Assembly: GCA_947623825.1 (NCBI GenBank)
Contig: CANQHQ010000003.1
Coordinates: forward strand, 4,220 to 68,219
Length of the DNA: 64,000 nt
Direction: 5' to 3'
From: an uncultured Bacilli bacterium
Lineage (GTDB): Bacteria; Bacillota_I; Bacilli_A; RF39; UBA660
Shown here: positions 1-46,130 of the stretch, piece after piece
Layout: the number at the start of each line of letters is the position of its first letter
How positions within the stretch are numbered: the first letter of the stretch is position 1
Notes under the pieces: model-generated
Databases searched by the model: none
What the model saw: the letters and a program-made list of their open reading frames with translations, nothing else
What the model was told of the DNA's origin: nothing
Translations under genes and position numbers: made by a program

Positions 1-1306
1 CCGCCGGTACTTCGTAGGTTGTACTCTTTGTCGGTTTCCAATCTAAATTTCCACGGTCTGGCATGGTTCCTTCCAATAATTTCCCATTGACCCATGCGTT
101 TTTCCCTTTTAAAATATTTCCTTCTGCAGCTGTTGCCTTCGTATTAGCATCTAAAGTTGTAACTGTAATCTTTCCCGTTCCGTCGTGATATCCTTCCGGT
201 ATCATGTATATATCTCCTGGATTCATGGTTTTTTGCACGCCATGATTGTTTGGCATACTTCCTATCACTTTTGTTCCATTTACCCAGGCTTCTTTCCCAG
301 TTAGAATCTCCTTTGCTTTCGCTGTTCCCTGTGTTCCATTCTTTAGGGCTGTCGAAGTACAAGCATGGAGCGTTTGAGTTGTCACGATACTTATATTTCC
401 TAGATGGTCTTTCGCATAAATTGGAGTTTCAGTTCCTACTGCTAATACCTTACTTGTATCTCCCACCCAACTTTCTCCTTTATCAAAGGAATAGATTTCT
501 CCATTTACATCCACTCCTACTCCGTTATCTTTCACACTATTCTTGTCGATGGATACTTCTAATTCGTCTTTCGATAAAAGTACATCTTCATTCGCAACTA
601 AACGAAACTCTGGCCCTAAACTATCTCCTTTTATCAAATGTCTAGTGGCTTCACTAATGTTTTCTCCTTCATCGACCGCTCTTACAAAGATATTTCCATT
701 ATAATTTGTATACGTATGTTCCTCATTTTCCATTTTTATCCAATTGATAAAATCCAAACTATATTCCATGTCTTTTATTGGTAAATTATAAGGACTACTA
801 CTGTTGTATTTCGCATAGATATGCTTTGCCCACTCTCCTTCTTTGTAAGGTTCCCCATTTTCGTTATCTTGCTTCAATGTGTATTCTACTTTGAACTTTC
901 CGTTGACTCCTTTACAAGCGAGTGGAATGGGATCAGACTCATGCATCAATGTTCCTGCTTCATCATGACAGTTCAAATAATATTCATAGTTATATCCATC
1001 ACTGATTCTCTTTCTTACAATCACACTTCCACTACAAGTAATTCCCTCTTCCTCTACTAATTCTTCATCCAATAAGGCTTGATAGGGAATATTAAAACAA
1101 TCCGCTGTTTCATTATTAAATTCTCCTCGATAATTCTTAACATACAATTTCACTGCCTCATCCACAATTTTTTCATGAATACGATATTTCTTTTGCGAAT
1201 TATTATACGTTAAATTTCGAACAGAAGGAATGGCAATTACCATGACCAACCCCATAATAATTACTACTGTCAACAACTCGATTAATGTAAAACCCTTATT
1301 CTTATT
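1..1306 (-). CDS. Type IV pilin-like / prepilin N-terminal domain protein, large (>430 aa). Partial: it runs past the window start. GTG start.
   Basis: I translated the minus strand by hand. After an in-frame TAG, a GTG at 1306..1304 begins MKNKGFTLIELLTVVIIMGLVMVIAIPSV, the classic prepilin peptidase site G|FTLIE followed by a hydrophobic helix. I spot-checked the frame at about seven places down to nt 60 and it stays open. There is no stop inside the window, which explains why it is missing from the ORF track. A TATAAT -10 lies about 30 nt upstream of the GTG. An approximately 20-aa motif (ILxGKxAWVNGxxxxGxMP) occurs twice, about 60 aa apart. Confidence 0.6.
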
Positions 1307-1402
1307 CTTCACTCTATCACTCTACTTTCTAGTAAGATTATACCCTTTTTTTCTTCGATTTGGCAATACCTTTCGACGGATTGATATGCAAAAAAAGAAC
1401 GA

Positions 1403-2611
1403 TCACTCGCTCTTTTTATGTTTTTTTAATTCTTGGTTCACTAGTTTTTTATAAGCCTCTACTCCTGGCTGATTAAAAGGATTCACATCTAGTAAATATC
1501 CACCAATTGCCGCAGCCATTTCTTCAAAGTAAATCCATTTTCCTATTTCCATAGGAGAAAGTTCCGAAAGCGTAAAGAGGATACTTGGCGTATTTCCACT
1601 TTCATGGGCTTCCATTACTTTTTCCAAAACCAAATGATTTAATTCATTCATCGAAAGGTCATAATTTTCTAGCGTCAGATCTTCGGTTTCTTCTATCTTC
1701 CATACGGTTTCAAAAACATTTTTCGTGCCCTCTTGAAGATATTGTCCAATCGAATGAAGATTAGTTGTATTTTCATTTACGATGGGAAGAATTCCCTTTC
1801 CTTCTTTCCCTTGTGTTTCCGCGAACAATTGTTGTGCCCAAGCCGCAAAAGAAGATAATTTTTCTTCATAAATCGTATTGGCTTCTATCGTATAACCATC
1901 TTCTTCCAAATGTTTTCTTACTAGTGCGTATTGGGCGGCCTCGTCGAAACAGTTACGATTGAAGTTAGCACCCGTTAAAAGAGAAAGAAAATCGATTCCT
2001 GCCACAGCGATTGGAAATAACCCTACTGGAGATAATACGGAATACCTTCCTCCAATTTGTCTTGGGACAGTCAATGTCTCCAAATGATTTTCGGTCGCAA
2101 ATTTTCTTAGTTTTCCTTCTTCTTTATCGGTAGTTACAATGATTCTTTTCTCATAATCAGAAAAATGTTCTTTCATATACTTGTAAATTTTTTCAAAGGC
2201 AATCGATGGTTCTAGAGTTCCTCCCGATTTGGAGATGACATTGACATAGACACTTTTTCCTTCGAGATACATTAAAAGTTCTTTCAAGTAACTCGAAGAT
2301 AAGTGGTTCCCAGCGAAAAGAATTTCTGGCTTGTTCTTTTGAAAATAAGGTTGAAGTGCTTCGATTACAGCCCTACTACCTAAATAAGATCCTCCGATAC
2401 CAATGACAACGAAAACATCGGCTTGATTTCGAATCTCGCTCGCAAGAAGGGAGATCTTTTTCTTCTCCTCTTCCTCGATACAAGTTTCTACATCTAGCCA
2501 GTCTAACATCTCTTGCTTTTGGTTCATCTTCTCTTTGATTTCTTCTAATTTTTTTCTTTCTTCTTCCGAACATGTATTCCATTTTTTTGCATGTGTGAAA
2601 TCTATTTTCAT
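1403..2611 (-). CDS. pgi: Glucose-6-phosphate isomerase (Gram-positive type)
   Basis: 402 aa. Contains the GIGGSYLG and GGRYSVLSPVGL motifs typical of PGI. The start overlaps the stop of the upstream giant gene (coupled). Confidence 0.9.
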   Translation of the reverse strand: MKIDFTHAKKWNTCSEEERKKLEEIKEKMNQKQEMLDWLDVETCIEEEEKKKISLLASEIRNQADVFVVIGIGGSYLGSRAVIEALQPYFQKNKPEILFAGNHLSSSYLKELLMYLEGKSVYVNVISKSGGTLEPSIAFEKIYKYMKEHFSDYEKRIIVTTDKEEGKLRKFATENHLETLTVPRQIGGRYSVLSPVGLFPIAVAGIDFLSLLTGANFNRNCFDEAAQYALVRKHLEEDGYTIEANTIYEEKLSSFAAWAQQLFAETQGKEGKGILPIVNENTTNLHSIGQYLQEGTKNVFETVWKIEETEDLTLENYDLSMNELNHLVLEKVMEAHESGNTPSILFTLSELSPMEIGKWIYFEEMAAAIGGYLLDVNPFNQPGVEAYKKLVNQELKKHKKSE

Positions 2612-5600
2612 TCTTCTTTCACCTCGATTTGAACTTCGTGTACCTTCTTATCATTTACTAATCGAATTTCTTTTGCTTCTACTCCATCGATTAGAATTCG
2701 TTTTTCCTTTTTCTTTTGTACTTGGATATGGTATTCTGTTTCCTCATAGTGATAAGTTAATTCTATGGTACTCCATTCTTTTCCCATTTGTGGATGAATT
2801 TCTAGTTTGTCTTTTCGTTTCTGGAAACCTAGTAGATTTTCTAATCCAATTCGATAAAACCATCCACTCGATCCTGTATACCAAGTCCATCCTCCTCGTC
2901 CACGATGATTTGGATTCGAATAGATATCCGCCGCAATGACATATGGTTCGGTCCTATACGTCTTTGTATCTTTTTCTGTTTTGGTACGGTGAATTGGGTT
3001 TACCATCTGGAAGATTTTTAAGGCTTCCTCTTCTCTCTTTAATTTTAAGAGCGATAAGATATACCAAGAAACGGCATGAGTATATTGTCCTCCATTTTCT
3101 CTTACCCCTATCGGATAATCCATAATATAACCCGCATAATTTCTACTGTTTTTAAAGGCTGGAGTTAACAATTTTACAATTTTGATATTTTTATCGACCA
3201 ATTGGTCTTCGACACAACGAAGAACACTTTCGATTCTTTCTTTTGGAATCACTTCTGATAAGATAGAAAAACTTTGCGATATTAAATCGATTTTACATTC
3301 TTCGCTTTCTTTGCTTCCTACTTTGGTTCCATCATCGAAGAAAGCACGTAAATAATATTCTCCATCCCATGCCTGTTCATTGATATTTTTCTTTAATTCT
3401 TCCCGCGCCTTTTCATATTTTTCGGTAGAAAGGTTCTTATCGTATTTTTTGGTTAACTGAATGAACTTCTCTAAGACGTCGTAGAAGAAGAAGGCAAGCC
3501 AAACACTTTCTCCTTTTCCTTGGATTCCGATTTGGTTCATTCCATCGTTCCAATCTCCTCCACCCATATGAGGAAGTCCGTGTTCTCCTAAATCATTCAA
3601 TGTCCGTTCGATAGCGAGACGGCAGTGTTCATACAAGGAAGCGGTTTCTTCACTCAAAGTAAAGTCTTCTCCTCGTTCTTCCTCAAAATCTTGAAGAAGA
3701 CTTCCTTGGGCAAAAGGAATTTGTTCTTTCAAAATAGAAGTATCTTCGGTGACTTCGATATAATCATTCGTTGCGTAGACAAGCCATAAATAGTCATCTT
3801 TGAAGCGACTTCGCAATCCAAAATTCTTTGGTTCTAACCACCAGTGAAGTACGTCTCCTTCCTGGAATTGATGACTGGCATTTTTCAAAATTTGTTTTCT
3901 AGCCAATGCCGGATAGATACTACGAAGATTCATCGTATCTTGTAATTGGTCTCGATATCCAAAAGCCCCACTTACTTGATAGAATCCAGCCCGAGCGAGA
4001 ATTCGTCCGACAATCGTTTGATATAAGTACCAACCATTCATCATGTAATCGAAACTTGGGTCATTGGTTTTTACTTGTACTGTTTCGAGTGTTTTCTTCC
4101 AGAAGGCTTTGACTTTCGATAATTCTTTTTCATACTCTTTCGTGGAAGCGTACTTTTCTTTGATTTCTTTAATTTCTTCTAGATTTCCGCCCACTCCCAG
4201 GATAAATCCGATCTTCTTCTTTTCTTTTCCTTTGAGTTCGATAAAAGTTTGAACAGATTTCACAAGAATTTTATCACCGTTCATTTCGTTAATCGGTTCC
4301 GTCGAAGTTACAAAGATAAGGTTCTCTCGATATTCTTTACTATAAACGTTTCGAAGGGTCATCCAGTTTTCTTCTGGATAGGTTTCCGTTAGTAAGTATC
4401 GACTGGTTTTCTCTTCTAGATTTCCTAAAACAGGATTCAACCAATAAGCAACGTCATATTGTTTGGTTTCTTCTGTTAAATTTTCTATCTCGAAAAGATA
4501 AAATTTTACTTTTTCTTCGGTCGCTACAAATTCCGTCAAAGTCTCTTTCAACTCTTTGGTTTGACTTTCAAAAATGGTATATCCGAATCCATGTCTTGCG
4601 ATACTTGGGTAAAAACTTTCTTGATTGATGCGAATTCCTTCCGACTGATCGAAGGAAACGATATCATTCGTCCAAGAAGTAAGCTTGAATTCTTGACTGT
4701 TATAGGCATAGGTAAAGCCACTCGCATTATTACTTACCAACGTACCAAATTGGGCATTCGCAAGGATATTGAACCATGGAGTTGGCGTATCTGGTGTCGT
4801 GATGACATATTCTTTTCCTTCGTTCGCAAAACCACCAAAGCCATTGGCAAAGGCAAGATTTTTTTCTGGTGGAGCGGGAAGATTCTTTTGTTTTTGAATC
4901 GGTTGATACGTACTCGCACTGTTTTGGGCTTGTAGTGCTTCAATATAAGAATGCATCGAATCATGTTCCCTACTATCCAAACGAAGACGAGCGACCACAT
5001 TAAATAACAATTGTTCTTCCTTGGTCATATCATCAGAATGAATATAGAAAATCTTTCCAGGACGATTGCCAAAAGAATTCGTCTTATAGATTTGATAAAT
5101 CGTAAAATCAATTTCTTCTTTGATTCGTTTTTCGTACTGCTTCTTTTCATCGTTGATGATAATGACATCAACAAAAATTCCCTTCGTTTTAAAATATTCG
5201 TAGGCCTTCAATAGTTGTTTTGCCAAACTGATGGCACTCAGATCATGGATTGTTAAAGTAATCATCGGTCGATCACCAGAGACTCCAAACTTCCAGAGAG
5301 AATCTTGCGCTAGAACATTTCTCTTCAAGAGTTCTTTTCTTTCTTCATTGATGTTCATTTTACTTGTCTGATACAAATAATTTAACATGATATTGTAAAG
5401 TCTCATATCTCGACCTGTAATGTTTAGTTTTTTACAGTTCGAAAGATTCGTGATGGTGGCAAGTTCAAATTCTTCTTCGATTGAAGATTCATTCTCATAG
5501 AATTTCGCAATATCAATGACTTGATTTCGACTCGTTCCAAAGCAGTTCAAAATATAAATTTCTCTGGATTCTTCTGGGGCAAGAGAAATGGTGTTTCTCA

Positions 5601-8600
5601 TACTCATGACAGGATCAATTGGGGTCGCTGCTTCATTGGAAAGTTTTCCTTCAAGGGCAATTGGATTCGTCGCCGTACGATTTCTTCCGATAAATTGAAC
5701 TCGTTGCGTCTCGTATTCGTAATCTTTTTCTGTATCTGGAATATAAAGGCGATGAAGCAAATAATAACGATCGGGACGATTTCGTAAAGTTCGTTTCATA
5801 ATTAAAGCATTGACATTCGTATCGTATTCACTCTCTAAGAAAAGATTATTGAACGTTCGATGCGTTACATCGTTAATATTCTCCGTAATGGTTGGTTCTA
5901 GATACGTGGTAAGTTCTAGTGTTTTCTTTGTCTTGGCATTGTTTTTGATGGTTACTTTTCGAATTTCGGCATTATACATCGTACTGACAATGATTTCCGT
6001 CGTCGTCGCAACCTCGTTTTCAACCAAAACATATTTCAAACGATCGGAAGCAAAAACTACTTCATATTTTTCTGGTTTCCGGTTGATTGGGGCATAAGTA
6101 TTACTCCAAATTTTGCCATTTTCGGTATCTTTGAGGTAAAGAAAGGTTCCATAATCTTGTTCCGTTACCTTGCGATACCGATTTAATTGAATTTCTTTAT
6201 AACGACTGAATCCATTTCCTCTATCGTTCATCAATACTGTATACTTCGAATTTGAAATCGCACTCACTTCTGGTAAATCGGAAGGACAAGTAAAGTAACG
6301 CATATCATTTTCAATGACTTCTTTTTCATAGTTAAATCGTTTGTACTTCGCAATCTTCCAATCGATGACAGGATTTAATTGAATCTTTTCTTTTGTCAAA
6401 ATCTCAAAAGCCCGATTATTGGTATCTTCCATAAAATAGTCTTGGATGATTCCATTCTTTAGATAATTGGTAAGCGAAGAAAGAATCATTCCCTGATGAT
6501 GAGAGAAGAACGCCCGAACTGGTTTTTTGGTCTTTGTATCATACGATTCATAGAATCCGTAAGGGGTTTCTAATCCCAATTTTCTTAGTTTATGAATGTT
6601 TTTATACACTTCTTTTGGTTTTTCGATCGTCACAAGAATCGAACTATAAGGAGAAATAACAAGATGCGTATCGTTTACTTCTTGTAATTTTAGATAAGGG
6701 ACAGAGAACGTTTTATATTTATAATTGACTCCATTATCTAATTCGTCATAGGCACATTCACTAATTCCCCATGGTAAATGACGATTTCTTTCCTGCATAT
6801 AAGCTCTTTGACAGAAATAAGCAAAATCGTAACTTTCATCTAAGAGAGTGTTTGGATAACTCTTCATAAAGATGAGAGGCATGTAGTATTCAAAAAGAGA
6901 CCCAGCCCAAGAAGCAACTCCTTTATGATGTCGAAATTTCGTTAGTGTTTTATCGAGGCAAAACCAATGTTTACTTGGTACATCTCCTTTCGCTATCGCT
7001 ACATAACTGAGTAGACGACTTTCACTAGCGAAGCGGTTGTATTTATAAACGGAACATTCATTTTCAAAATCGTTGTATCCCACACTGAAGACTTCTTCTT
7101 TCGTATATAATTTTGAAAAATCTGTTTGTTGAATCAAAAGACGACAACGATTCGCTAATCTTTCTTCCCCTATTTTTTTGAGAAATTCTTTGGTTACGAT
7201 GAGACAAGCAACAAAATTTCCACTATCTACCGAAGAGACAAAGTGTGGGAATAATACTTTCAATGTTTCTGTTTGATACCAGTTATATAAATGTCCATTC
7301 CATTTGTCTAGTTTCTCTATCGTTTCTAGAATTTTTTCCATATAGAAAGTGGCTTCATTCTTTTTGATGAAACCAAGTTCATAGGCAGAAACAACCGCAA
7401 GGAAAGAAAATCCGATATCGGTAGGAGAAGTTTTATTATCCCGTGCATAAGCGCGATTTTCTTGATAGTTATCAGGAATTAAGTAATGGTATTCTTCCGT
7501 TAAATTTTCTTCAAAGAACTTCCATGTCTTATGGGCGATAGCTTCTATATCTTTTGTTTCTTCTTTCGAAAGTTCCTGTGTCCGATTTCTTCTTGTTTCC
7601 TTACTGATGTAATACGTGATATAAGGCGCAAGAGAGAACGTTAAACTGATACACAAAGCAGAAATAAAGTTAGAATTTTGTCCAAATAGATAAGTGAAGA
7701 GAAGAAGGATAAAAATGATAAAGTAATTGGCTTTGAAGTTTTCAATATAATTCGTTAACGTATTTTTTATAGTCTTCTCTGCTTCTTCCGCGGTTAGCCA
7801 ACTGAGCAAATGTTTTTTACTGATGATCATCCGATATAAAGAGCGAAAAATCGCATCTAAATAAAGCGCGGCTTTATAAGGAAGGGTCGTAAAAGAAATA
7901 ATGGTTCTTAAAATGACCGCTTCTCCACTTTTAATGATATTCGTATATGGTTTTACTTTTACTTTTCTTGTGAATTGATGACTCAACTTTTCTGTTATAT
8001 AGAAAATGAGTGGCATCGCGATAACGAATAATACATAGATACTCCATCCCGTTAAATAACTGTGCGAACTGAAGTAAGCAAATAATAAGATAACAAGTAA
8101 GAAAAACTCGATGAGGCAACGTCGTAAGTTATCAAAAATTTTCCATCTTTCTAAAAGCGTCAACGGATTTTTATACTTTTTCCCTTGTTCATCTTTTACG
8201 TATGGGAAGAGCCATGGTAAGACCTGTGTATCGCCACGCATCCAACGATGATGCCTTGTCATATCCGTCAAATATTGACTACAAAAATCATCGAATAATT
8301 CAATATTGGAAGTGTATCCACTATGAAGATAGTTGCTTTCTACCAAATCGTGGGAAAGAATGAGTCCTGTTGGGAAACGATGGTCAATGACTTCGTCGTA
8401 CACTTTTAAGTGATAAATTCCTTTTCCCATAAAGCTTCCTTCGTGGAACACATCTTGATAGAAATTCGAAATTAACGTGTTGTATACGTCAAATCCACCG
8501 AGTCCAGCGAAGAGTTCTGCATAAAGAGAACGATTGGATGATTCGACATCGACACTTAGTTTCGGTTGCAAAATTCCATATCCTTGTACTACTTTATTTC

Positions 8601-10299
8601 TTTCTTTATTCAACACGGGTTGATTGAGAGGATGCGCCATTGTTCCAACTAAATCCGCTACACTACCAACGACAAGTTTGGTATCGGCATCTAGTGTAAT
8701 CACATATTTTATCTTTTCTTTTAAACTGTGTAACGTCTCTACTTTAAAAAATTTTTGTACTTCTTCTTTCGGCATTTTATTTAAGAGAAGCCGGTTAAAA
8801 TGAATCAAAGCTCCTCTTTTTCTTTCCCAACCGAGATAAGAATCTTCTGTCTCGTGATATACGCGATTTCGGTAAAGGAAAAAGAAACGTTCTTCTTGAT
8901 ATTTTTCGTTTAATTCTTTGCATTTTTGGATTCCATAAGCGGCTACTTCTTCATCGTGAGGAACCGCTTCTTGCTTTTGTTCACTACAATCTCCTAATAA
9001 AGCAAAATAGAGATGGTCCATCCGGTTTGCAAGAAATCCTGATTCTAAATTCGAGAACATAGCATCGATTTTTTTCTTATCCTTCAAAATGGTTGGAATC
9101 ACTACCATCGTTGCTTCACTTTCGCGAATTCCTTTTGAAAAATCTAATTTAGGAAGGGCTTTCGGTTTTAACTCTGTCGTTAAAATTCGATTCAAAATGG
9201 TAATGACAATTTCACTCGAAGGAATCCATAAAATGAGAAATCCAAGAAGTTTCTGTTCGGTCAGATAAGGGGCAAGTCCATAACTGATGGCACTCGTAAA
9301 CAAGAGAATAATGGTAAAATACAAGAATTCTCTTCTTTTTCGATTGGGCTCTTTTAAAAGATAGAAACCAATATGCTTCTTTTCTCTAGTACTTTGCGCA
9401 ATCAATCTTCGGACATAAATTAATTCACTCACCTTTTGTTTTTTGGCAAGTTTTACAATTCTTTCCCGATACATATTTTTAGAATCGGCATCCATCATTC
9501 GATAGGTACGATCACTATTCAATTCTTCTTCGGTTTCACTAATTTCTTCATAAATCGATTCGAGTTTGAGATGCTCATTCATCTTTAAAATGAGGAATAA
9601 ATTACTGATGACTAAATTCTTTTTGATTCTGTCTTCATAGACTTCATTTAATACCCTTTTTAGATTGGTATTATTTCTTTCTAAGTTTTCGTTTAATTCG
9701 TAAAATACTTGACTAGCCCCGCGATTTAAACGGTAAAGATTTTCATTTAGATATTCGATATAGATAGGATAATTGATGATATCTTCCTTAATTGTGATAT
9801 ATTTATGGATATCATCTTCCGGATGTTTCAAAAGTTTTTTTCCAAGAAAGACAATATCACTTTCTGCCCTTTTTCTTTCTAACATGGCACTTTTTTCAGC
9901 TACACATAATTCTTTTACTTTGTGAATAATTACCATAGATAGAATTGGACGAATTCGTTGAAGTCCTTGATAGGTAAAACTGATTTTATTATTCTTTTGA
10001 TAATATTTCAAATGACGAAACATACTTCTTTTCGTCATTTTATAATTGTTATTTTCCAAATAGTTCGTTAAAACATTCCAAAGTAGTTCACTCGTTTCTT
10101 TGGTATTACGAATCAACTTTTCATCGGCATAGATTTCTTCAATCATATTTTGATGCTCTAATAAGGTGGCATAGTTATCCAAAATCCACTCATTTAAGGC
10201 CCCGATGGGTTGATGGTTTTTTGTCTTCTTTACCAAAAAATTATAATATTTGGAAATGATTCTTAAATCCTTTTTAAACTCTCTATATCTTTTATACAT
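2608..10299 (-). CDS. Cyclic beta-1,2-glucan synthase-like giant protein (Cgs/NdvB/ChvB architecture). It has a membrane-embedded GT84 glycosyltransferase domain and a C-terminal GH94 glycoside phosphorylase-like domain.
   Basis: The N-terminal half has multiple transmembrane segments and a GT84 block: ITLDADTKLVVGSVADLVGTMAHPLNQPV ... GYGILQP ... LSHDL ... HHRWMRGDTQVLPW. These match the Cgs motifs TLDADT, MAHPLN, GYGILQP and HRWxRGDWQ. The C-terminal half carries GH94 signatures: GYRDQLQD, HWW, GGDWNDGMN, ENGGQYTHAVSW and GRGGWTWYTGSSGW. The ORF-track start (10332) is a TTG. The ATG at 10299 (MYKRYREFKK) has a GGGTGA Shine-Dalgarno 6 nt upstream and is preferred; it gives 2563 aa. Confidence 0.8.
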   Translation of the reverse strand: MYKRYREFKKDLRIISKYYNFLVKKTKNHQPIGALNEWILDNYATLLEHQNMIEEIYADEKLIRNTKETSELLWNVLTNYLENNNYKMTKRSMFRHLKYYQKNNKISFTYQGLQRIRPILSMVIIHKVKELCVAEKSAMLERKRAESDIVFLGKKLLKHPEDDIHKYITIKEDIINYPIYIEYLNENLYRLNRGASQVFYELNENLERNNTNLKRVLNEVYEDRIKKNLVISNLFLILKMNEHLKLESIYEEISETEEELNSDRTYRMMDADSKNMYRERIVKLAKKQKVSELIYVRRLIAQSTREKKHIGFYLLKEPNRKRREFLYFTIILLFTSAISYGLAPYLTEQKLLGFLILWIPSSEIVITILNRILTTELKPKALPKLDFSKGIRESEATMVVIPTILKDKKKIDAMFSNLESGFLANRMDHLYFALLGDCSEQKQEAVPHDEEVAAYGIQKCKELNEKYQEERFFFLYRNRVYHETEDSYLGWERKRGALIHFNRLLLNKMPKEEVQKFFKVETLHSLKEKIKYVITLDADTKLVVGSVADLVGTMAHPLNQPVLNKERNKVVQGYGILQPKLSVDVESSNRSLYAELFAGLGGFDVYNTLISNFYQDVFHEGSFMGKGIYHLKVYDEVIDHRFPTGLILSHDLVESNYLHSGYTSNIELFDDFCSQYLTDMTRHHRWMRGDTQVLPWLFPYVKDEQGKKYKNPLTLLERWKIFDNLRRCLIEFFLLVILLFAYFSSHSYLTGWSIYVLFVIAMPLIFYITEKLSHQFTRKVKVKPYTNIIKSGEAVILRTIISFTTLPYKAALYLDAIFRSLYRMIISKKHLLSWLTAEEAEKTIKNTLTNYIENFKANYFIIFILLLFTYLFGQNSNFISALCISLTFSLAPYITYYISKETRRNRTQELSKEETKDIEAIAHKTWKFFEENLTEEYHYLIPDNYQENRAYARDNKTSPTDIGFSFLAVVSAYELGFIKKNEATFYMEKILETIEKLDKWNGHLYNWYQTETLKVLFPHFVSSVDSGNFVACLIVTKEFLKKIGEERLANRCRLLIQQTDFSKLYTKEEVFSVGYNDFENECSVYKYNRFASESRLLSYVAIAKGDVPSKHWFCLDKTLTKFRHHKGVASWAGSLFEYYMPLIFMKSYPNTLLDESYDFAYFCQRAYMQERNRHLPWGISECAYDELDNGVNYKYKTFSVPYLKLQEVNDTHLVISPYSSILVTIEKPKEVYKNIHKLRKLGLETPYGFYESYDTKTKKPVRAFFSHHQGMILSSLTNYLKNGIIQDYFMEDTNNRAFEILTKEKIQLNPVIDWKIAKYKRFNYEKEVIENDMRYFTCPSDLPEVSAISNSKYTVLMNDRGNGFSRYKEIQLNRYRKVTEQDYGTFLYLKDTENGKIWSNTYAPINRKPEKYEVVFASDRLKYVLVENEVATTTEIIVSTMYNAEIRKVTIKNNAKTKKTLELTTYLEPTITENINDVTHRTFNNLFLESEYDTNVNALIMKRTLRNRPDRYYLLHRLYIPDTEKDYEYETQRVQFIGRNRTATNPIALEGKLSNEAATPIDPVMSMRNTISLAPEESREIYILNCFGTSRNQVIDIAKFYENESSIEEEFELATITNLSNCKKLNITGRDMRLYNIMLNYLYQTSKMNINEERKELLKRNVLAQDSLWKFGVSGDRPMITLTIHDLSAISLAKQLLKAYEYFKTKGIFVDVIIINDEKKQYEKRIKEEIDFTIYQIYKTNSFGNRPGKIFYIHSDDMTKEEQLLFNVVARLRLDSREHDSMHSYIEALQAQNSASTYQPIQKQKNLPAPPEKNLAFANGFGGFANEGKEYVITTPDTPTPWFNILANAQFGTLVSNNASGFTYAYNSQEFKLTSWTNDIVSFDQSEGIRINQESFYPSIARHGFGYTIFESQTKELKETLTEFVATEEKVKFYLFEIENLTEETKQYDVAYWLNPVLGNLEEKTSRYLLTETYPEENWMTLRNVYSKEYRENLIFVTSTEPINEMNGDKILVKSVQTFIELKGKEKKKIGFILGVGGNLEEIKEIKEKYASTKEYEKELSKVKAFWKKTLETVQVKTNDPSFDYMMNGWYLYQTIVGRILARAGFYQVSGAFGYRDQLQDTMNLRSIYPALARKQILKNASHQFQEGDVLHWWLEPKNFGLRSRFKDDYLWLVYATNDYIEVTEDTSILKEQIPFAQGSLLQDFEEERGEDFTLSEETASLYEHCRLAIERTLNDLGEHGLPHMGGGDWNDGMNQIGIQGKGESVWLAFFFYDVLEKFIQLTKKYDKNLSTEKYEKAREELKKNINEQAWDGEYYLRAFFDDGTKVGSKESEECKIDLISQSFSILSEVIPKERIESVLRCVEDQLVDKNIKIVKLLTPAFKNSRNYAGYIMDYPIGVRENGGQYTHAVSWYILSLLKLKREEEALKIFQMVNPIHRTKTEKDTKTYRTEPYVIAADIYSNPNHRGRGGWTWYTGSSGWFYRIGLENLLGFQKRKDKLEIHPQMGKEWSTIELTYHYEETEYHIQVQKKKEKRILIDGVEAKEIRLVNDKKVHEVQIEVKEE

Positions 10300-10398
10300 C
10301 GATATCACCCTACTCCTACTATAGTATATCAAAAATTCCCCTCATTCGGAAGTCAAAGTAGGAAAAAAATAAAAGGAAGGGGAAGTTTTTTCCCTTTC

Positions 10399-11331
10399 CT
10401 ACATACTGGCAATAAAAATTTCGAAGGCGAGTTCGGCATTTCCATTCCCGCTTTTCATATCATAATCTACTTGGGCAAGTTTTTCTAAATATTCTAGTAG
10501 CATCTCCTCTGTATAACCATAGGATGCTTCTCTTGCTAATTTTACTGGATAAGGATGCATTCCTAGTTTGGTGCCGATTTCTTGATCACTCCATCCTTTT
10601 TGAAGGAGAATTTTTGTCTGATAAATTAAGCGAATTTTATTTGCTAATTTGGTTAAAACACTAGAAGACTGTTCTCCATGAAGCAATAAATCCTGATACA
10701 TTTCGAAGGCTTCTTTCTTTTTTCCCGTTAGAATCGCATCTACTAAAGAATAGATATTTTCTTCCCAATTCTTGCGGACGATTTCTTTGATATCATTCGC
10801 GGTAATTTTCTTTTCTTCGACTCGATACAATTTTAATTTCTCTAATTCGTTTAGGACAATACTCGGATTTTGTCCACAATATTCTATTAGGAAGTCGATG
10901 GTTCTCGTATCCATTTCATACCCATCCAATCTCTGTTTGACCATTTCTTTGATTGATTCTTCTTTTTGGATGAGTGTTCCTTTTTCACATAGTTTTGTTA
11001 CAATTTTTTTTCGTTTATCGATTTCTTCTGCGACTAAAATCAAAATGTTTTCAGGACTAGGATGATCGAGATATTTTTCTAATCGTTCTAAGTGATGTGT
11101 GACTTCTTTCAGCGAACTATCTTTCGCTAAAAAAGTGGCGTTCCAACCAAGAATTACTTTCTTAGAGGAAAGAAAATTATAGGTATCTAAGTCCTCAATT
11201 AAACGATCGATAGGTGTTTCTAGTAAATCGTAACTTACTTTTTCGATTTCTTTTTCTTTTGAAAGAATTTGATTAATCTGAAATTCTGTGACTTGCGGAT
11301 CTTTTGAAACAATTAGGTAGACGTTACTCAT
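10399..11331 (-). CDS. holA: DNA polymerase III delta subunit
   Basis: 310 aa. Its size, its position immediately downstream of alaS and its HolA-like N-terminus (MSNVYLIVSKD...) support the call. Domain-level assignment only. Confidence 0.7.
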   Translation of the reverse strand: MSNVYLIVSKDPQVTEFQINQILSKEKEIEKVSYDLLETPIDRLIEDLDTYNFLSSKKVILGWNATFLAKDSSLKEVTHHLERLEKYLDHPSPENILILVAEEIDKRKKIVTKLCEKGTLIQKEESIKEMVKQRLDGYEMDTRTIDFLIEYCGQNPSIVLNELEKLKLYRVEEKKITANDIKEIVRKNWEENIYSLVDAILTGKKKEAFEMYQDLLLHGEQSSSVLTKLANKIRLIYQTKILLQKGWSDQEIGTKLGMHPYPVKLAREASYGYTEEMLLEYLEKLAQVDYDMKSGNGNAELAFEIFIASM

Positions 11332-14008
11332 TGGCTTGTTCCCTTATTTTGGCAAAAATTTCCTCGATGTGAGCCGTCGTTTTTCCTCCTCCTTGTGCAA
11401 AAGTTTTACTTCCTCCTCCATTGCCATCGGATAGTTGACTTGCCATCTTGACGATGCTTCCTGCTTCAATTTGACAGTTACTACGAGCGATAAAATTTAC
11501 ATTTTCATTCTTACAATTGGCGAAAAGGATGAATCCTTTTTCCATTTTATTCAATAAATCATCAATAATATTTTTTAAGACATTGGAATCGGCATCGTTT
11601 AACTTCATTAAAAGAAGTTTTACTCCACCCACTTCTTCGATATTTTTTTCGTACATCGATGTGTCTTTCAAAGCTAGATTTTGTTTTTCTTGTTGATACC
11701 GTTTCTCTAGTTCTTTGACTTCTGTTTGGGTATATTCTAATTCATTTCTTTCCGAAACAAGATCTGCATAACTCATCGGTTCTTTGTTATCAATTTGAAT
11801 ATCAAAGTCTAGTTCGATTCCTTCGCATTTGGCTTTCGAAATGATGTTTCTTGCCTTCATTAAAAGTTTGATTTTTTCGTCATTATATGGTTTGATGACT
11901 TCCATTAGTTTATCTTCAATTTTGTCATTGGTTACTGCTTCGATTCGGTAAACGTTACTTCCCTTTGATTCAACAGAGAAAATCGCAATCCGACGAATTT
12001 CATTCGTGTTATGAATGTGCGTTCCTCCACACAATTCTTTGGAGTCTCCAATCGTCACAACTCTTACTTTTTCTTTATACTTTTCACCGAATAAAGCCAT
12101 TGCGCCCGTTTTCTTTGCTTCTTCCAAATCCATAATCTCTGTCTTGGCATCGATTTTATTCTGTACATAGTCATTTAGGAAATTCTCTACTTCGATGATC
12201 TTGTCGTCTAATAATTTTCCTGTATAAGTGAAATCAAAGCGGAGAGAATCTTCATCGACTCTACTTCCGGCCTGATGAATGGTATCACTCACTAATTTTT
12301 GAAGAGCGTATTGAAGTAAATGGACAGAAGAATGGTTGGCTTCAATTTCATGTCGTTTTTCAATGTCTAGTGTTTCATTGACTGTGTCTCCTACGGATAA
12401 CGTTCCATTTAAAATTTTGACACGATGAAGATTTTGACCATTTGGAGCCTTGATGGAATCTAACACTCTCGCCGTCACATTATGGTTCGTCAACATTCCT
12501 GTATCGCTTACCTGTCCTCCACTTTCGGCATAGAAACAAGTTTTATCTAGGACGACATAGCCTTCTTTTTTTAATTCATCGACTTGTTTTTCTTCTTTGA
12601 ATAGGCCTACGATTTTTCCTTTGGTTGTATACGTATCATATAAGAACTCACTCGTTTCATGAAAGTTTAATAAGGCCTCATTTTGAATATTCATGTTGGC
12701 TTCCTGCTTGCGAGAAGATTTCGCCAAATTCTTTTGTTCTTCCATGTAGTGATCAAATTCTTCTTTCGAAGTCGTGAATCCTTTTTCCTCGAGATATTCC
12801 ATTGTCAACTCGTAAGGAAATCCATACGTATCATATAATTTAAATACTTCTATCGCTGGGATTTCTTTTGTTTCGGCATTTTTCATTAAGTCTAGTAAAC
12901 GACGTTCTCCAGAAGATAACGTTTTATGGAAAAGTTGTTCCTCTTCATAAACGAGTGTTTCTACTTGTCCTTGGGTATCTTTCAATTCTGGATAGGATTC
13001 TTCCATGATTTGTACGACGGTATGGACCAGTTTATACATGAATGGTTCTTCCATTCCTAGTTTCTTTCCCATACGGACACTTCGTCTTAAAAGACGTCTT
13101 AGAACGTATCCTCTTCCGACATTTTCAAAAATTGCCCCGTCGGAAAGCGCTACGGTGATGGCCCGGATATGATCGGCAATAATTTTAAAGGCAGAATCTC
13201 CGTTATAGAGAACGCCACTCAATTCTTCAATTTTTTGGATAATTGGGACAAATAAATCGGTATCGAAATTGGAATCGACATCTTGAAAGATACAAGCCCA
13301 ACGTTCTAGCCCTGCCCCTGTATCGATATTTTTACTTGGTAATTCTTTATATTCTTCGCGAGGAACTCCTTCTTTGGAATTGAATTGACTAAATACATTA
13401 TTCCAGATTTCAACATAACGATCTTGGTCTTCGTCGTTACGGAATTTTTCTAGTGCGTCTTTCTTTGGATCGTACTTTTCTCCTCGATCATAGAAAATTT
13501 CTGAATCCGGTCCGCAAGGTCCTTCTCCAATTTCCCAGAAGTTTCCCTCTAATTTCGCTATATGGTCTGGCGTTACTCCTAAACTTAACCATTTCTCGTA
13601 AGCATCTCTATCATTTTTATAGACCGTAAAATAAAGTTTTTCTTTCGGAATCGCAAACCAGTCTGGACTCGTTAGTAATTCGAAAGCATACTCGATGGCT
13701 TCTTCTTTGAAATAGTCTCCAATCGAAAAATTTCCCATCATTTCAAAAAAGGTTTGATGTCTTGCGGTCATTCCTACGTTTTCAATATCGTTCGTACGAA
13801 TGCATTTTTGAATATTGACAATTCGACGATTTTCAGGCACTTCTCTTCCATCAAAATATTTTTTTAATGGGGCTACTCCTGCATTAATCCATAATAAACT
13901 TTTATCATCCTGAGGAATTAAAGGAGCACTCTTCATTTTCTTGTGTCCTTTTTGTTCAAAGAATTGATACCACATATTTCTAATTTCTGTTGATGTCATC
14001 TTTTTCAT
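11324..14008 (-). CDS. alaS: Alanine--tRNA ligase
   Basis: 894 aa. Begins MKKMTSTEIRNMWYQFFEQKGHKKMKSAPLIPQDDKSLLWINAGVAPLKKYF, the canonical AlaRS N-terminus. Has the C-terminal DHHA1-type tail with GGGK. Confidence 0.95.
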   Translation of the reverse strand: MKKMTSTEIRNMWYQFFEQKGHKKMKSAPLIPQDDKSLLWINAGVAPLKKYFDGREVPENRRIVNIQKCIRTNDIENVGMTARHQTFFEMMGNFSIGDYFKEEAIEYAFELLTSPDWFAIPKEKLYFTVYKNDRDAYEKWLSLGVTPDHIAKLEGNFWEIGEGPCGPDSEIFYDRGEKYDPKKDALEKFRNDEDQDRYVEIWNNVFSQFNSKEGVPREEYKELPSKNIDTGAGLERWACIFQDVDSNFDTDLFVPIIQKIEELSGVLYNGDSAFKIIADHIRAITVALSDGAIFENVGRGYVLRRLLRRSVRMGKKLGMEEPFMYKLVHTVVQIMEESYPELKDTQGQVETLVYEEEQLFHKTLSSGERRLLDLMKNAETKEIPAIEVFKLYDTYGFPYELTMEYLEEKGFTTSKEEFDHYMEEQKNLAKSSRKQEANMNIQNEALLNFHETSEFLYDTYTTKGKIVGLFKEEKQVDELKKEGYVVLDKTCFYAESGGQVSDTGMLTNHNVTARVLDSIKAPNGQNLHRVKILNGTLSVGDTVNETLDIEKRHEIEANHSSVHLLQYALQKLVSDTIHQAGSRVDEDSLRFDFTYTGKLLDDKIIEVENFLNDYVQNKIDAKTEIMDLEEAKKTGAMALFGEKYKEKVRVVTIGDSKELCGGTHIHNTNEIRRIAIFSVESKGSNVYRIEAVTNDKIEDKLMEVIKPYNDEKIKLLMKARNIISKAKCEGIELDFDIQIDNKEPMSYADLVSERNELEYTQTEVKELEKRYQQEKQNLALKDTSMYEKNIEEVGGVKLLLMKLNDADSNVLKNIIDDLLNKMEKGFILFANCKNENVNFIARSNCQIEAGSIVKMASQLSDGNGGGSKTFAQGGGKTTAHIEEIFAKIREQANE

Positions 14009-14543
14009 TGTTCTCTACCTCACTTACTATTCTCTTTACTTCTTTCTTTAGCCCTTCTAAACTTTCATTGATTACTTCATAATCAAAATTTTTATAGTCC
14101 GCTAAAGCCACTTCCGTATAATGCACTTGTTCCTCTTGGGATAAGGAACTTTCGTATTCTTTTCTGATGATATTGATACTGATACTTCCTGGAAATCGTT
14201 CTTTCAATGTCTCAATTTCTAAAGGAAGACGCACATCCGTCACCAAAAATACATCGTAATACTTTTCTAGAATATGGATATTTTCCGTCAATCGATCGAT
14301 GAAATAATAAGGCATACCCAATTCTTGACGAATCAATTCTGTTCCCATTTTTTGAAGTTTTTCGCGCGGTTTGGTTTCTTCGGAACCATCCCAACCAAAG
14401 TAATCTTTTAGTAACCATTTTAAAGGGCGCATCAATTGAATAAAACAAACTCTTTTTCCAAGAATCTCATATTCTTGTTGCATCATTTGACTCATCGTAT
14501 CTTTTCCATTGCGTGCTCTTCCACTGATTAGATATAACCTCAT
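13980..14543 (-). CDS. P-loop NTPase, nucleotide/deoxynucleotide-monophosphate-kinase-like small protein. First gene of the T-box-controlled alaS operon.
   Basis: 187 aa. Walker A-like ISGRARNGKDT near the N-terminus. Strong Shine-Dalgarno AAAGGAGGAG. Its 3' end overlaps the alaS start by 29 nt, so the two are co-transcribed. Confidence 0.4.
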   Translation of the reverse strand: MRLYLISGRARNGKDTMSQMMQQEYEILGKRVCFIQLMRPLKWLLKDYFGWDGSEETKPREKLQKMGTELIRQELGMPYYFIDRLTENIHILEKYYDVFLVTDVRLPLEIETLKERFPGSISINIIRKEYESSLSQEEQVHYTEVALADYKNFDYEVINESLEGLKKEVKRIVSEVENNEKDDINRN

Positions 14544-14775
14544 ATTTCTCCTCCTTTTTGGTAAATTAAAAGACCTAAACAGGAGCGAACAGGTCGCGGT
14601 ACCATCCTCATTAGATCTCTTTTTTGATAACGGAATTTTTTCTTCCGGAATTTCTTCACTCCAAAGTAGCTTCCCATACTCTTTTTATCAAGTTCCACCT
14701 ACCCTTGACTCTCTAGTAAAAAGGTCGTATCGTACTCATCTTCTTCAACGTTTTCTCTTGCTTTCCTAAGCAACT
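14544..14775 (-). promoter_or_regulatory. T-box riboswitch leader (presumed Ala specificity) with upstream sigma-A-like promoter
   Basis: On the minus strand the T-box consensus AGGATGGTACCGCG sits at plus 14595..14609. It is followed by a GACCU...AGGUC hairpin and UUUUAAUUU (terminator/antiterminator switch). The promoter is TTGCAT, a 17-nt spacer, then TATAAT at about 14815..14780. The leader is about 230 nt. Confidence 0.7.
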
Positions 14776-37925: not shown

Positions 37926-38464
37926 ACCTATTCCTCTTTTCTTGCCCTATTGTATCATTTTCTTTTTTCTAGTGTCAACGTTGTACGTCGTAAAGGATAC
38001 TTGTCATCCTACCTTGTTTTTTATTACTGACCATTTAATCAGTACAGTAAAAGGAGTTTTGATTTTAAAGATTCCGTTCTACCAAACACTAGACTTTTGG
38101 AAATGGTTCTCATATAAAAAAGATTTCCTATTCACAAGGAAACCTTCTCTTCTTTCTTGTGTCCAGAAGACCGTTTCGGTCGGCGATAAAACCTGCATTT
38201 TTACAGGTGGGTGTCCATACGAAGTTCTTAGGATTCCTTCCTATCACCGGAAGGCATTCAACACAAACTTCTTGATCCGAACTCCCGTATCGTCACTTTA
38301 GTCGGTTTTATATGTGACCTATCTCGTATCTCCTAGACAATTTTAGTATATCATACTTTTTCATTTTTCAAAGAGTTTTTCTTTCTTTTTCAAAAAATCT
38401 AGGCTTGTACTCTTTTTTTGGAAACTATTTCTTTCTTTTCTCATAAATTATCATAGGTGATTCT

Positions 38465-44282: not shown

Positions 44283-44283
44283 A

Positions 44284-44373: not shown

Positions 44374-44431
44374 TTTTCTTCACCTATTTTAGTCTTGTCA
44401 AAAATGGCACCTTTTTATTCAAAAAATTTTT

Positions 44432-45717: not shown

Positions 45718-45732
45718 AAACTTCTACTCTTT

Positions 45733-46128: not shown

Positions 46129-46130
46129 TT

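Follow-up and report, generated by a model that had tools for sequence, protein, structure and literature searches.

A compact, putative synthase of cyclic beta-1,2-glucan and its predicted translational coupling to a probable glucose-6-phosphate isomerase gene in a low-GC Firmicute

We analysed a 64-kb stretch of bacterial DNA (the window) and found that it encodes a 2563-aa membrane protein that is very probably a compact synthase of cyclic beta-1,2-glucan (Cgs) of a known family, making this glucan and coupled to pgi, the probable gene for glucose-6-phosphate isomerase. In a phmmer search against PDB sequences, the protein matched Agrobacterium tumefaciens Cgs (8rf0/8rf9, E = 0, 1321 bits) in four collinear stretches spanning residues 2-2517, bearing out the preliminary description of a Cgs (NdvB)-type giant with homology that runs from the N-terminal domain to the C-terminus. 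The A. tumefaciens enzyme, Cgs/ChvB, has orthologs in Brucella abortus (Cgs) and Sinorhizobium (NdvB). It is known from cryo-EM structures (PDB 8RF0 and 8RF9; Sedzicki et al. 2024, PMC10901819). The two proteins are about 32% identical, and the window Cgs is the shorter (2563 versus 2831 aa); its compactness is what sets it apart from the studied enzymes, the protein being otherwise a member of a known family. The view of the host as a low-GC Firmicute is supported by a GC content of 0.357, a T-box leader, a PASTA-domain PBP and a Bacillus-like yqfD-ybeY-dgkA-cdd-era-recO run in the window.

The open reading frame had been placed at 2608-10332. This minus-strand frame exists, but its best-supported start is the ATG at 10299: the TTG at 10332 is merely the first possible start, whereas the ATG lies 6 nt downstream of a GGGTGA, yields the length of a 100%-identical NCBI protein (P0001) and gives an N-terminus that lines up with those of homologs. 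All motifs quoted in the preliminary description occur in the translation, namely TLDADT (535-540), MAHPLN (554-559), GYGILQP (573-579), HRWMRGD (684-690), GYRDQLQD (2114-2121), GGDWND (2247-2252), ENGGQYTHA (2401-2409) and GRGGWTWYTGSSGW (2467-2480). The frame is intact, and its length is that of the homologs in more than 80 clusters.

Like A. tumefaciens Cgs, the window protein comprises, in order, an N-terminal domain (NTD), two transmembrane (TM) helices, a GT84 glycosyltransferase, four further TM helices, a GH189 cyclase (CY) and a GH94 region with a Rossmann-like insert (RFL) (Table 1). The GT84 and GH94 parts of the domain order first proposed are thus present, but the membrane part is not one N-terminal polytopic block, and the GH189 cyclization domain between GT84 and GH94 had been overlooked. 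Six hydropathy segments flank GT84 in a 2+4 arrangement (approximately 326-346, 351-372, 728-748, 751-771, 857-877 and 878-897) and align with the TM regions of the A. tumefaciens protein; by analogy, the soluble domains would all lie on one, cytoplasmic, side of the membrane. The loop between TM4 and TM5 (86 residues) is conserved in length throughout the family, and the A. tumefaciens structure likewise has six TM helices, of which TM4 and TM5 are 76 residues apart (PMC10901819). The Pfam check proposed for GH94 returned the catalytic domain (PF17167, E 4.6e-111) and two matches to the supersandwich domain (PF06165, E 1.6e-82), and the middle domain matched Glycoamylase/DUF3131. Residues 1-900 gave no Pfam or NCBIfam match, even at E <= 10; these models do not cover the GT84 part, which is assigned to its family by pairwise homology and motifs.

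Table 1. Features of the cgs-pgi locus (window coordinates; res, Cgs residues; Atu, A. tumefaciens)
Feature	Coordinates	Strand	Evidence
pgi, probable Bacillus-type glucose-6-phosphate isomerase, 402 aa	1403..2611	-	Pfam, NCBIfam and PDB matches
ATGA overlap of cgs stop and pgi start	2608..2611	-	read from sequence
cgs	2608..10299	-	open reading frame; start by P0001 length and identity and homolog N-termini; 8rf0/8rf9, 1321 bits
GH94 region (GP1 supersandwich, RFL, GP2, GP3), res 1321-2563	2611..6339	-	PF06165 twice and PF17167
GH94 catalytic (alpha/alpha)6 domain, res 2066-2491	2827..4104	-	PF17167, E 4.6e-111
RFL subdomain inserted in GH94 region, approximately res 1627-1794	4918..5421	-	aligned to Atu 1847-2012
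CY (GH189) domain, res 898-1320	6340..7608	-	332 bits to TiCGS cyclization domain 8wy1
TM helices 3-6 with TM4-TM5 loop of about 85 aa, res 728-897	7609..8118	-	hydropathy segments 721-751, 747-773, 854-879, 878-896
GT84 domain, res 373-727	8119..9183	-	407 bits to Atu Cgs residues 442-1114
Y606 codon, equivalent of Atu Y694 primer tyrosine, IF1h loop	8482..8484	-	alignment GGFDVYN versus RGIDPYV
TM helices 1-2, res 326-372	9184..9324	-	hydropathy segments 324-346, 350-373; aligned to Atu TM region
N-terminal cytoplasmic domain, res 1-325	9325..10299	-	weak (20 bits) but collinear alignment with NTD of Atu Cgs
Terminator-like hairpin and T-run between holA and cgs	10380..10394	-	consensus scan and sequence; consensus match only

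All 16 functionally mapped residues carried over from experiments on A. tumefaciens Cgs and on the Thermoanaerobacter italicus enzyme (TiCGS) are kept in the window protein, so that the primer tyrosine, the GT84 D/D/D/R set, the CY D/E and the GH94 D/D are shared with the former. Conservation was checked at 16 columns, including most of the GT84 residues, in 99 homologs, with rows listed for 69. The GT84 residues D437, R493, D537/D539, Y606, D651, R685/W686 and R688 have counterparts in A. tumefaciens D527, R586, D624/D626, Y694, D739, R773 and R776 (PMC10901819); the active-site residues D437, D537/D539, D651 and R685-W686, which make up the UDP-coordinating Asp pair, the DxD, the catalytic base Asp and the RW motif, are kept in almost all homologs among those listed, the exceptions being G at the D539 column in P0009 and P0011 and A at the D437 column in L039 and P0119. 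Y606, which by its alignment to Y694 is the putative autoglucosylation (primer) tyrosine, is kept in 69 of 69. In the N-terminal domain, E37, D41, N42, Y277, R278 and H309 are invariant across the family alignment.

The CY domain carries S1022, D1025, E1093 (acid/base), E1137, E1181 (nucleophile) and H1267/H1268, of which E1093, E1181, E1137, H1267 and H1268 correspond to E1356, E1442, E1400, H1536 and H1537 of TiCGS, also of Firmicute origin. Its AF2 model (pLDDT 90.9) is an (alpha/alpha)6 barrel whose top Foldseek match is the TiCGS cyclization domain 8wy1 (E 2.9e-36, TMq 0.92, TMt 0.68), the GH189 structure of Tanaka et al. 2024 (PMC10834661). The GH94 region is collinear with A. tumefaciens Cgs 1624-2246 and 2284-2794, the RFL aligning with the range reported for that subdomain, 1847-2012 (PMC10901819). 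It bears D2117, D2252 (catalytic acid) and H2408; D2117 and D2252 align to D2393 and D2528 of A. tumefaciens and are kept in all homologs among those listed.

The C-terminal third shares its fold, catalytic Asp and phosphate-site motifs with stand-alone GH94 enzymes, which include the 1,2-beta-oligoglucan phosphorylases Lin1839 of Listeria innocua and SOGP of Lachnoclostridium phytofermentans. GH94 Pfam domains also match cellobiose and chitobiose phosphorylases (195-255 bits), and NCBI calls relatives of the window protein 'glucoamylase family' or 'GH36-type glycosyl hydrolase domain-containing'. We nevertheless regard it as almost certainly wrong that the C-terminus is a cellobiose, chitobiose or sophoro-oligosaccharide phosphorylase on an unrelated membrane protein, which would make the whole a catabolic enzyme and no synthase. 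The GH94 region scores 476 bits against A. tumefaciens Cgs and 195 bits against the best cellobiose phosphorylase (at most 195 bits for cellobiose and chitobiose phosphorylases together), contains the Cgs-specific RFL insertion and follows 1300 aa collinear with the Cgs NTD, TM, GT84 and CY parts, with all catalytic residues intact. Furthermore, stand-alone GH94 enzymes are soluble, catabolic proteins of about 800-1100 aa (about 800 aa for the disaccharide phosphorylases) without GT84, CY, TM or RFL parts, and no SOGP was among the PDB sequence matches listed for Cgs or its GH94 part. Collinearity along the entire Cgs together with the GH94 scores thus effectively rules out an ordinary GH94 phosphorylase fused to an unrelated membrane protein, the outcome that the preliminary description had itself named as a refutation.

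The preliminary description had further regarded a full-length Cgs in a Firmicute as an unusual acquisition, a view that the relatives of the protein do not support. Metagenomes and metagenome-assembled genomes (MAGs) hold more than 80 clusters of 2520-2574-aa homologs at 42-83% identity, and the few named compact ones are labelled Firmicutes or Bacilli. For the Firmicute T. italicus, biochemical and structural work on its Cgs is already published (PMC10834661), and CAZy GT84 lists about 1930 intact CGSs (PMC12102758). A neighbour-joining tree put the protein within a Bacillota radiation, with bootstrap 100/100 for three nested clades (the compact clade, the Bacteroidales-labelled sister group and the short forms of gut Clostridia), Clostridia forms being the next relatives of the compact clade. 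The Bacillota forms tested (the compact clade with its Bacteroidales-labelled sister, and the gut Clostridia short and Clostridia long forms) split from all other sequences at 87/100, the other side including Paenibacillus and some Oscillospiraceae/Clostridiales forms.

These data bear equally on the idea that cgs was recently acquired from alpha- or other Proteobacteria, which we consider very improbable. The experimentally studied Cgs enzymes are mostly alpha-proteobacterial, and the family is patchily distributed and, over long timescales, evidently mobile, with the sister of the compact form found on true Bacteroidota contigs (L005). Against a recent transfer, besides the tree, identity is only 32-33% to proteobacterial forms, compared with 37-38% for Clostridia forms and 42-84% for members of the compact clade and the sister group; cgs has the GC (0.353) and GC3 (0.322) of the flanking housekeeping genes; and Pfam/NCBIfam annotation found no mobile-element genes beside cgs, which sits between holA/alaS and pgi.

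The compactness of the window Cgs shows in its cyclization domain, its N-terminal domain and GP2-3. In alignments to 8wy1 and A. tumefaciens Cgs, the inserted CY alpha-helices of the characterised enzymes are absent (8wy1 residue 140 is followed by 305, and A. tumefaciens 1116 by 1254), leaving a D1025-E1093 spacing of 68 aa compared with 165-276 aa in long forms. What is missing is a four-helix insert of about 120-130 aa that mediates back-to-back dimers in A. tumefaciens, a dimerisation contact rather than part of catalysis (PMC10901819), and in TiCGS about 160 extra residues, described as 'additional alpha-helices unique to CGSs' (PMC10834661). Lacking these, the window CY domain equals stand-alone GH144 beta-1,2-glucanases in size (about 420 aa). 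The insert is also missing from homologs of gut Clostridia, Oscillospiraceae, Gemmatimonadales and Anaeromyxobacteraceae, so it is no defining trait of the family. Relative to long-form Cgs, the N-terminal domain is shortened by some 65-125 aa (roughly 100 aa), and GP2-3 falls about 55 aa short of its A. tumefaciens counterpart.

Short forms from gut Clostridia (for example Clostridium sp. CAG:780, L008) and Bacteroidales MAGs (L005, L017), the nearest outgroups of the compact clade (100/100), have the same conserved residues and likewise lack the insert (equivalent spacing 70-107 aa). The gut Clostridia forms, however, keep a long N-terminal domain (370-415 aa), and their cgs is followed by an OmpR-type two-component pair rather than pgi; the Bacteroidales-labelled forms lie on contigs of 53-57% GC without pgi, and that of L005 adjoins an outer-membrane TonB-type barrel gene. 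Full-length TiCGS-type Clostridia proteins, by contrast, measure 2800-2950 aa and are about 37% identical to the window Cgs.

Given the absent insert and the shorter, weakly similar N-terminal domain, product size or oligomeric state could differ, and the compact enzyme might make a linear beta-1,2-glucan or another ring size. The affected parts matter in A. tumefaciens Cgs, where the N-terminal domain cradles the primer glucan and the glucan-binding landscape is made up of NTD, CY and GP surfaces (PMC10901819). We nonetheless judge a different product quite unlikely: the isolated CY barrel of TiCGS by itself sets a ring size of at least 17 (PMC10834661), conservation extends to this barrel and to every catalytic and pKa-tuning residue, and the insert serves dimerisation.

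Judged from its homologs in Agrobacterium and Thermoanaerobacter, a compact synthase of cyclic glucan would operate as follows. Six TM helices would anchor Cgs in the cytoplasmic membrane and leave every catalytic domain in the cytoplasm, where the GT84 domain would use UDP-glucose to add glucose to Y606 and lengthen a protein-linked beta-1,2-glucan. The GH94 part would trim the chain by phosphorolysis, releasing glucose-1-phosphate (G1P), and would also act as a glucan-binding scaffold; GH189, with E1181 as nucleophile and E1093 as acid/base, would cut and cyclise the chain by intramolecular transglycosylation. The predicted product is a cyclic beta-1,2-glucan with roughly 17-25 glucoses in the ring. 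The fructose-6-phosphate/glucose-6-phosphate (F6P/G6P) node would feed UDP-glucose by way of Pgm and GalU, whose genes lie elsewhere, and could re-absorb the released G1P.

Direct reading of the sequence upheld the claim that the cgs stop overlaps the pgi start in an ATGA: the TGA of cgs occupies 2610..2608 and the ATG of pgi 2611..2609, with a Shine-Dalgarno GAGGTG (2620-2625) inside the cgs 3' end, 8 nt upstream of the pgi start. This arrangement supports translational coupling of cgs to pgi, and the hairpin upstream of cgs suggests that the pair may form its own transcription unit. Bacillus-type Pgi is usually about 445-450 aa long. The window protein matches Pfam PGI (88.3 bits, cut-off 22; E 5.6e-25) and PDB entries 3ifs, 3ff1 and 1b0z (288-301 bits; 3ifs 301), and retains the ETQGK, LHS and GVEAYKK motifs; its NCBIfam PRK14097 score of 403 bits falls under the 443 cut-off, and the protein is about 45 aa shorter than usual.

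Such coupling would tie synthase expression to the F6P/G6P node. Because two enzymatic steps separate Pgi from UDP-glucose, the coupling might simply be that of a housekeeping gene carried along by a constitutive promoter, and we give a somewhat less than even chance to a genuine Cgs whose adjacency to pgi, as a co-transcribed housekeeping gene, is functionally meaningless. In keeping with this, the direct supplier of UDP-glucose is not pgi, pgm and galU are not linked, no pgi linkage is seen in the Bacteroidales-labelled sister group or in any of the Clostridia loci examined, and small genomes often pack housekeeping genes in mixed operons, holA and alaS lying just upstream here. A meaningful link is favoured by recurrence: pgi is the most frequent cgs neighbour (8 of 80 loci) and lies directly downstream in six related loci (L003, L004, L006, L009, L028 and L035), where the pair persists at 47-50% Cgs identity with a tight junction (-4 to +67 nt) although all other flanking genes differ. 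A Lysobacterales MAG (L070) has an unrelated, long-type pgi about 1.2 kb downstream of cgs, and G1P released by GH94 re-enters glycolysis via Pgm and Pgi.

In Proteobacteria, a Cgt/NdvA/ChvA exporter is a system-level feature that need not be linked to cgs. No exporter of this type was found adjacent to cgs or elsewhere in the window, where the single ABC exporter carries a C39 peptidase domain of the bacteriocin type. The host, as a Firmicute, is presumably monoderm and without a periplasm, in contrast to A. tumefaciens; the known physiological role thus does not transfer. In these gut Bacillota, the compact Cgs could be a natural minimal form in which the insert is dispensable, making an intracellular osmolyte or carbon-reserve glucan that its own phosphorylase domain would turn over to G1P, then G6P and, via the coupled Pgi, F6P. 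We consider this combined reading unlikely, though with some small chance of being right. If true, the cgs-pgi pair would have a role unlike the periplasmic or host-interaction role in Proteobacteria, and the minimal Cgs would show that cyclisation needs neither the 'CGS-unique' helical insert nor dimerisation.

The minus-strand gene cgs, which encodes a homolog of Cgs, the synthase that makes cyclic beta-1,2-glucan, lies within a single unbroken open reading frame running from 10332 to 2608 (-). TTG at 10332 is merely the first possible start, and ATG at 10299, with GGGTGA 6 nt upstream, yields 2563 aa. From this ATG, the product equals the public NCBI protein P0001 in length and sequence (100% identity) and its first residues line up with those at the start of every close homolog. 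Because GGGTGA, P0001 and the homolog N-termini agree, we took the gene as 2608..10299; plus-strand ORFs within it (2535-2939, 4561-4935, 5521-5787 and 5810-6097) were taken as spurious shadows of the long coding sequence. All eight motifs named in the preliminary description were found (residues 535-540, 554-559, 573-579, 684-690, 2114-2121, 2247-2252, 2401-2409 and 2467-2480) and, with the ORF at 2608-10332 and a full domain set, they confirm its observation of a giant Cgs-type reading frame.

Pfam identified a GH94 catalytic domain at residues 2066-2491 (E 4.6e-111), two matching stretches of GH94 supersandwich (E 1.6e-82), and Glycoamylase (PF10091) with DUF3131 in the middle of the protein, which also matched the cyclization domain, solved by crystallography, of the Thermoanaerobacter italicus enzyme (TiCGS; 8WY1). 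The alternative raised at the outset, in which a common phosphorylase is joined to a membrane protein of other descent, is effectively ruled out by the GH94 part, which scores 476 bits to Cgs versus no more than 195 bits to any cellobiose phosphorylase, and the proposed Cgs identity holds. Residues 1-900 gave nothing relevant in Pfam or NCBIfam, even at E <= 10, so the assignment to GT84 depends on homology to the Agrobacterium tumefaciens enzyme of known structure (Atu Cgs; 8RF0/8RF9). Hydropathy predicts six transmembrane (TM) segments (~326-346, 351-372, 728-748, 751-771, 857-877 and 878-897), with the same 2+4 layout and long TM4-TM5 loop as in Atu Cgs (PMC10901819). The order first read, a polytopic membrane domain, GT84 and then GH94, was a simplification: GT84 and GH94 are present, and an N-terminal domain (NTD) and a cyclase had been left out.

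Residues whose importance in Atu Cgs (PMC10901819) and TiCGS (PMC10834661) is known from mutants or structures were transferred by pairwise alignment, and the 16 positions checked are kept in the window protein and nearly all homologs of a 99-sequence alignment. Residues 900-1320 were modelled with AlphaFold (pLDDT 90.9, pTM 0.92), and the structure that best matches the model is 8WY1 (TM 0.92 on the query, 0.68 on the longer target), followed by the Atu cyclization domain and then GH144-type beta-1,2-glucanases. By every sequence criterion available, the window protein appears to be a catalytically competent Cgs.

Features of the window and of the Cgs homolog (nucleotide positions in the window; residues in the 2563-aa protein)
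Feature	Position	Strand	Remark
Large protein, >437 aa	2-1312	(-)	Runs off window; N-terminal type IV pilin N-methylation motif KGFTLIELL
pgi	1403-2611	(-)	
cgs	2608-10299	(-)	
holA	10399-11331		In T-box run
alaS	11324-14008		In T-box run
Small dNMP-kinase-like gene	13980-14543		Run with alaS and holA, overlapping gene ends
T-box leader	14578-14757	(-)	95 bits, above gathering score; upstream of dNMP-kinase-like gene, alaS, holA
Surface protein, 1275 aa	14887-18714	(-)	N-terminal VWA, Listeria-Bacteroides repeat, many PARCEL/DUF285 ('Mycoplasma') repeats
6S/SsrS RNA gene	38156-38342	(-)	65.7 bits
C39-peptidase ABC exporter	52197-54287	(-)	
NTD	res 1-325		
TM1-2	res 326-372		
GT84	res ~373-727		
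TM3-6	res 728-897		
Cyclization domain (GH189)	res ~898-1320		
GH94 region	res 1321-2563		
Rossmann-fold-like subdomain	res ~1627-1794		Within GH94 region; aligned to Atu 1847-2012
GT84 residue	D437		Atu D527; UDP coordination
GT84 residue	R493		Atu R586
GT84 residues	D537/D539		Atu D624/D626
GT84 residue	Y606		Atu Y694; tyrosine bearing glucan primer
GT84 residue	D651		Atu D739; catalytic base
GT84 residues	R685-W686		Atu R773; RW motif
GT84 residue	R688		Atu R776
Cyclase residues	S1022/D1025		Atu S1101/D1104
Cyclase residue	E1093		Atu E1300, TiCGS E1356; acid/base
Cyclase residue	E1137		TiCGS E1400
Cyclase residue	E1181		TiCGS E1442; nucleophile
Cyclase residues	H1267/H1268		TiCGS H1536/H1537
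GH94 residue	D2117		Atu D2393
GH94 residue	D2252		Atu D2528; catalytic acid

Atu Cgs is ~270 aa longer than the window protein, a difference arising from a shorter NTD in the latter (325 aa versus roughly 390-450 aa in studied enzymes and long forms, that is, Cgs with a helical insert in the cyclization domain), a GP2-3 part of the GH94 region shorter by ~55 aa, and a stretch missing between D1025 and E1093 (~127 aa relative to Atu Cgs, ~160 aa relative to TiCGS). By alignment-based counting, the D1025-E1093 spacing is 68 aa, compared with 165-276 aa in long forms. The TiCGS cyclization domain was reported to carry "additional alpha-helices unique to CGSs" (PMC10834661), and the matching block of Atu Cgs is a four-helix motif mediating back-to-back dimers (PMC10901819); judged by position and size, the missing stretch probably corresponds to this 'CGS-unique' helix block. 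Spacings of 70-110 aa also occur in homologs from gut Clostridia, Oscillospiraceae, Gemmatimonadales and Anaeromyxobacteraceae. Loss of the insert is thus not private to the compact clade, the short-form group holding the window protein, and the insert is not a defining feature of the Cgs family. We found no characterised insert-less form in the Cgs papers that we read. If active, such a naturally minimised Cgs, ~270 aa smaller and without the dimerisation insert, could be handier for structural or synthetic-biology work.

The preliminary description had regarded a full-length Cgs in a Firmicute as an unusual acquisition. A protein search returned 1908 homologs, the best 83 clusters of which (2521-2602 aa, a few truncated; 38-83% identity) come from metagenomes and MAGs and are named, where a name is given, "Firmicutes bacterium", "Bacilli bacterium" or plain "bacterium". 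Further carriers from a genome scan included Candidatus Onthousia faecavium (Bacilli) and several MAGs, labelled "uncultured Bacilli", that were sampled from the rumen and from the guts of chicken, rabbit and human. A second tier, at 36-38% identity, consists of Clostridia (Tepidibacter, Thermoanaerobacter kivui, Alkaliphilus and Clostridium aceticum/formicaceticum), and proteobacterial representatives reach 32-33%, no higher. In a neighbour-joining tree, a coarse method (99 sequences, 2386 well-occupied columns, Kimura distances, 100 bootstraps), support was 100 for the compact Bacilli clade, for this clade with a Bacteroidales-labelled sister group, and for both with the gut Clostridia short forms; the tested Bacillota forms separated from all others, including Paenibacillus and some Oscillospiraceae, at 87. 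In GC (0.353) and GC3 (0.322), cgs cannot be told apart from holA, alaS, polA, addAB and pgi, and its surroundings are housekeeping genes, with no mobile-element genes near it. Moreover, a Firmicute Cgs, that of T. italicus, has already been published (PMC10834661), and CAZy holds about 1930 intact CGSs in GT84 (PMC12102758). A horizontal or unusual origin is therefore unsupported, and is the part of the initial interpretation that fell; Cgs identity and pgi coupling stood. The locus indicates that cgs, an intact gene for an apparently active synthase, is native and conserved in a lineage of uncultured gut Firmicutes.

The sister group of compact Cgs (~2520-2610 aa) includes the loci L005 (6001-13647) and L017 (5971-13803) and the proteins P0078, P0083 and P0073. 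Some members lie on contigs of 53-57% GC labelled Bacteroidia/Bacteroidales, and the sister form was seen in rumen and deer-gut Bacteroidales-labelled MAGs. We consider L005 a genuine Bacteroidota contig because a TonB-type outer-membrane barrel gene adjoins. As the Bacilli clade has this group as its sister, and the two are nested in gut Clostridia forms, the tree suggests inter-phylum cgs transfer among gut or rumen anaerobes. Two loci labelled 'uncultured Muribaculaceae' (L003 and L028) are yet 26-27% GC, with a Bacilli-type cgs-pgi pair at 41-48% identity; these MAG labels are probably wrong.

The ATGA coupling of cgs to pgi is real: the cgs TGA (2610..2608) overlaps the pgi ATG (2611..2609), and GAGGTG lies 8 nt upstream of that ATG. 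The 402-aa pgi product is a Bacillus-type glucose-6-phosphate isomerase (288-301 bits to 3IFS, 3FF1 and 1B0Z) in which the ETQGK, LHS and GVEAYKK motifs, which we take to contain the Glu, His and Lys of catalysis, are aligned and conserved; it is ~45 aa shorter than usual and scores 403 bits to PRK14097 (NCBIfam) versus a cut-off of 443. We compared at least 80 cgs loci, a sample of the family drawn from genomes other than the window's own. Among the 80 listed, pgi is the most recurrent cgs neighbour, lying 3' of cgs with a spacing of -4 to +67 nt in six loci (L003, L004, L006, L009, L028 and L035; Cgs identity 41-50%) and 5.5 kb downstream in L002, with no other flanking gene common to these seven. 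The cgs-pgi module is conserved. Within the same 80 loci, pgi was found near cgs neither in the Bacteroidales-labelled sister group nor in Clostridia. The link might serve G6P supply for UDP-glucose, glycolytic re-entry of G1P freed by the GH94 domain, or both. Separately, a Lysobacterales MAG (L070) carries a canonical 556-aa PGI (15202-16872) ~1.2 kb downstream of a long-form cgs, an independent association. In gut Clostridia short forms (L008 15033-17299, L012, L066, L011 and L016), an OmpR-type response regulator takes the place of pgi after cgs, joined in three of the five by a PAS histidine kinase, which hints at signal-controlled glucan synthesis in that group.

By consensus match only, a terminator-like hairpin follows holA (10380-10394) and a promoter (TTGCCA-18-TATAAT, 1366-1337) for the gene at 2-1312 (-) lies directly downstream of pgi; these two elements suggest that cgs and pgi together form one transcription unit of two genes. 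In the 100 nt between holA and cgs, a promoter scan gave no good match to sigma-70; there, a possible extended -10 (TGaTATACT) was seen by eye. Rfam found no riboswitch or leader before cgs, its only hits being the T-box before the alaS run and 6S RNA.

The window holds a T-box leader, a PASTA-domain PBP, MraZ, MraW and the sporulation protein YqfD, the last in a Bacillus-like run at 43545-48425 (-) (yqfD (stage IV sporulation)-vanZ-ybeY-dgkA-cdd-era-recO). This run speaks for a Bacillota host, one that may sporulate, and the initial view of a Gram-positive, probable spore-forming Firmicute is a fair description if read as peptidoglycan-bearing and possibly spore-forming. In Brucella, Agrobacterium and rhizobia, cyclic beta-1,2-glucans act as osmoprotectants in the periplasm and as factors in host interaction; being a Firmicute, the organism of the window presumably lacks a periplasm, so this classical role is not simply transferable. 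No Cgt/NdvA/ChvA-type exporter was found within the 64-kb window. Its sole ABC exporter was rejected as a glucan partner, since it carries a C39 peptidase domain of bacteriocin type; several ORFs without family match lie downstream on the same strand (48663-52219 (-)), and 48663-54287 (-) may be a bacteriocin-type locus. The GH3 gene at 55051-56406 was rejected as a beta-1,2-glucan utilisation gene, being NagZ-like.

No NCBIfam model matches the 2563-aa protein, and its relatives carry the names 'DUF3131 domain-containing', 'glucoamylase family', 'GH36-type glycosyl hydrolase domain-containing' or 'hypothetical'. The Cgs family is systematically under-annotated outside Proteobacteria; automated naming of this lineage's protein does not say synthase. 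T. italicus is a Firmicute by phylogeny. A 2025 review calls it 'a Gram-negative bacterium' (PMC11842490), a label that may explain why Firmicute Cgs is little appreciated. The window Cgs is a compact addition to a known family, is inferred to share its mechanism, and leaves understanding of that family unchanged. Its interest lies in poor database annotation, a minimal architecture and a putative role for cyclic beta-1,2-glucan among gut monoderms, and its value in annotation and in pointing to these organisms as a candidate physiological setting: if the enzyme is active, beta-1,2-glucans would be made in animal guts.
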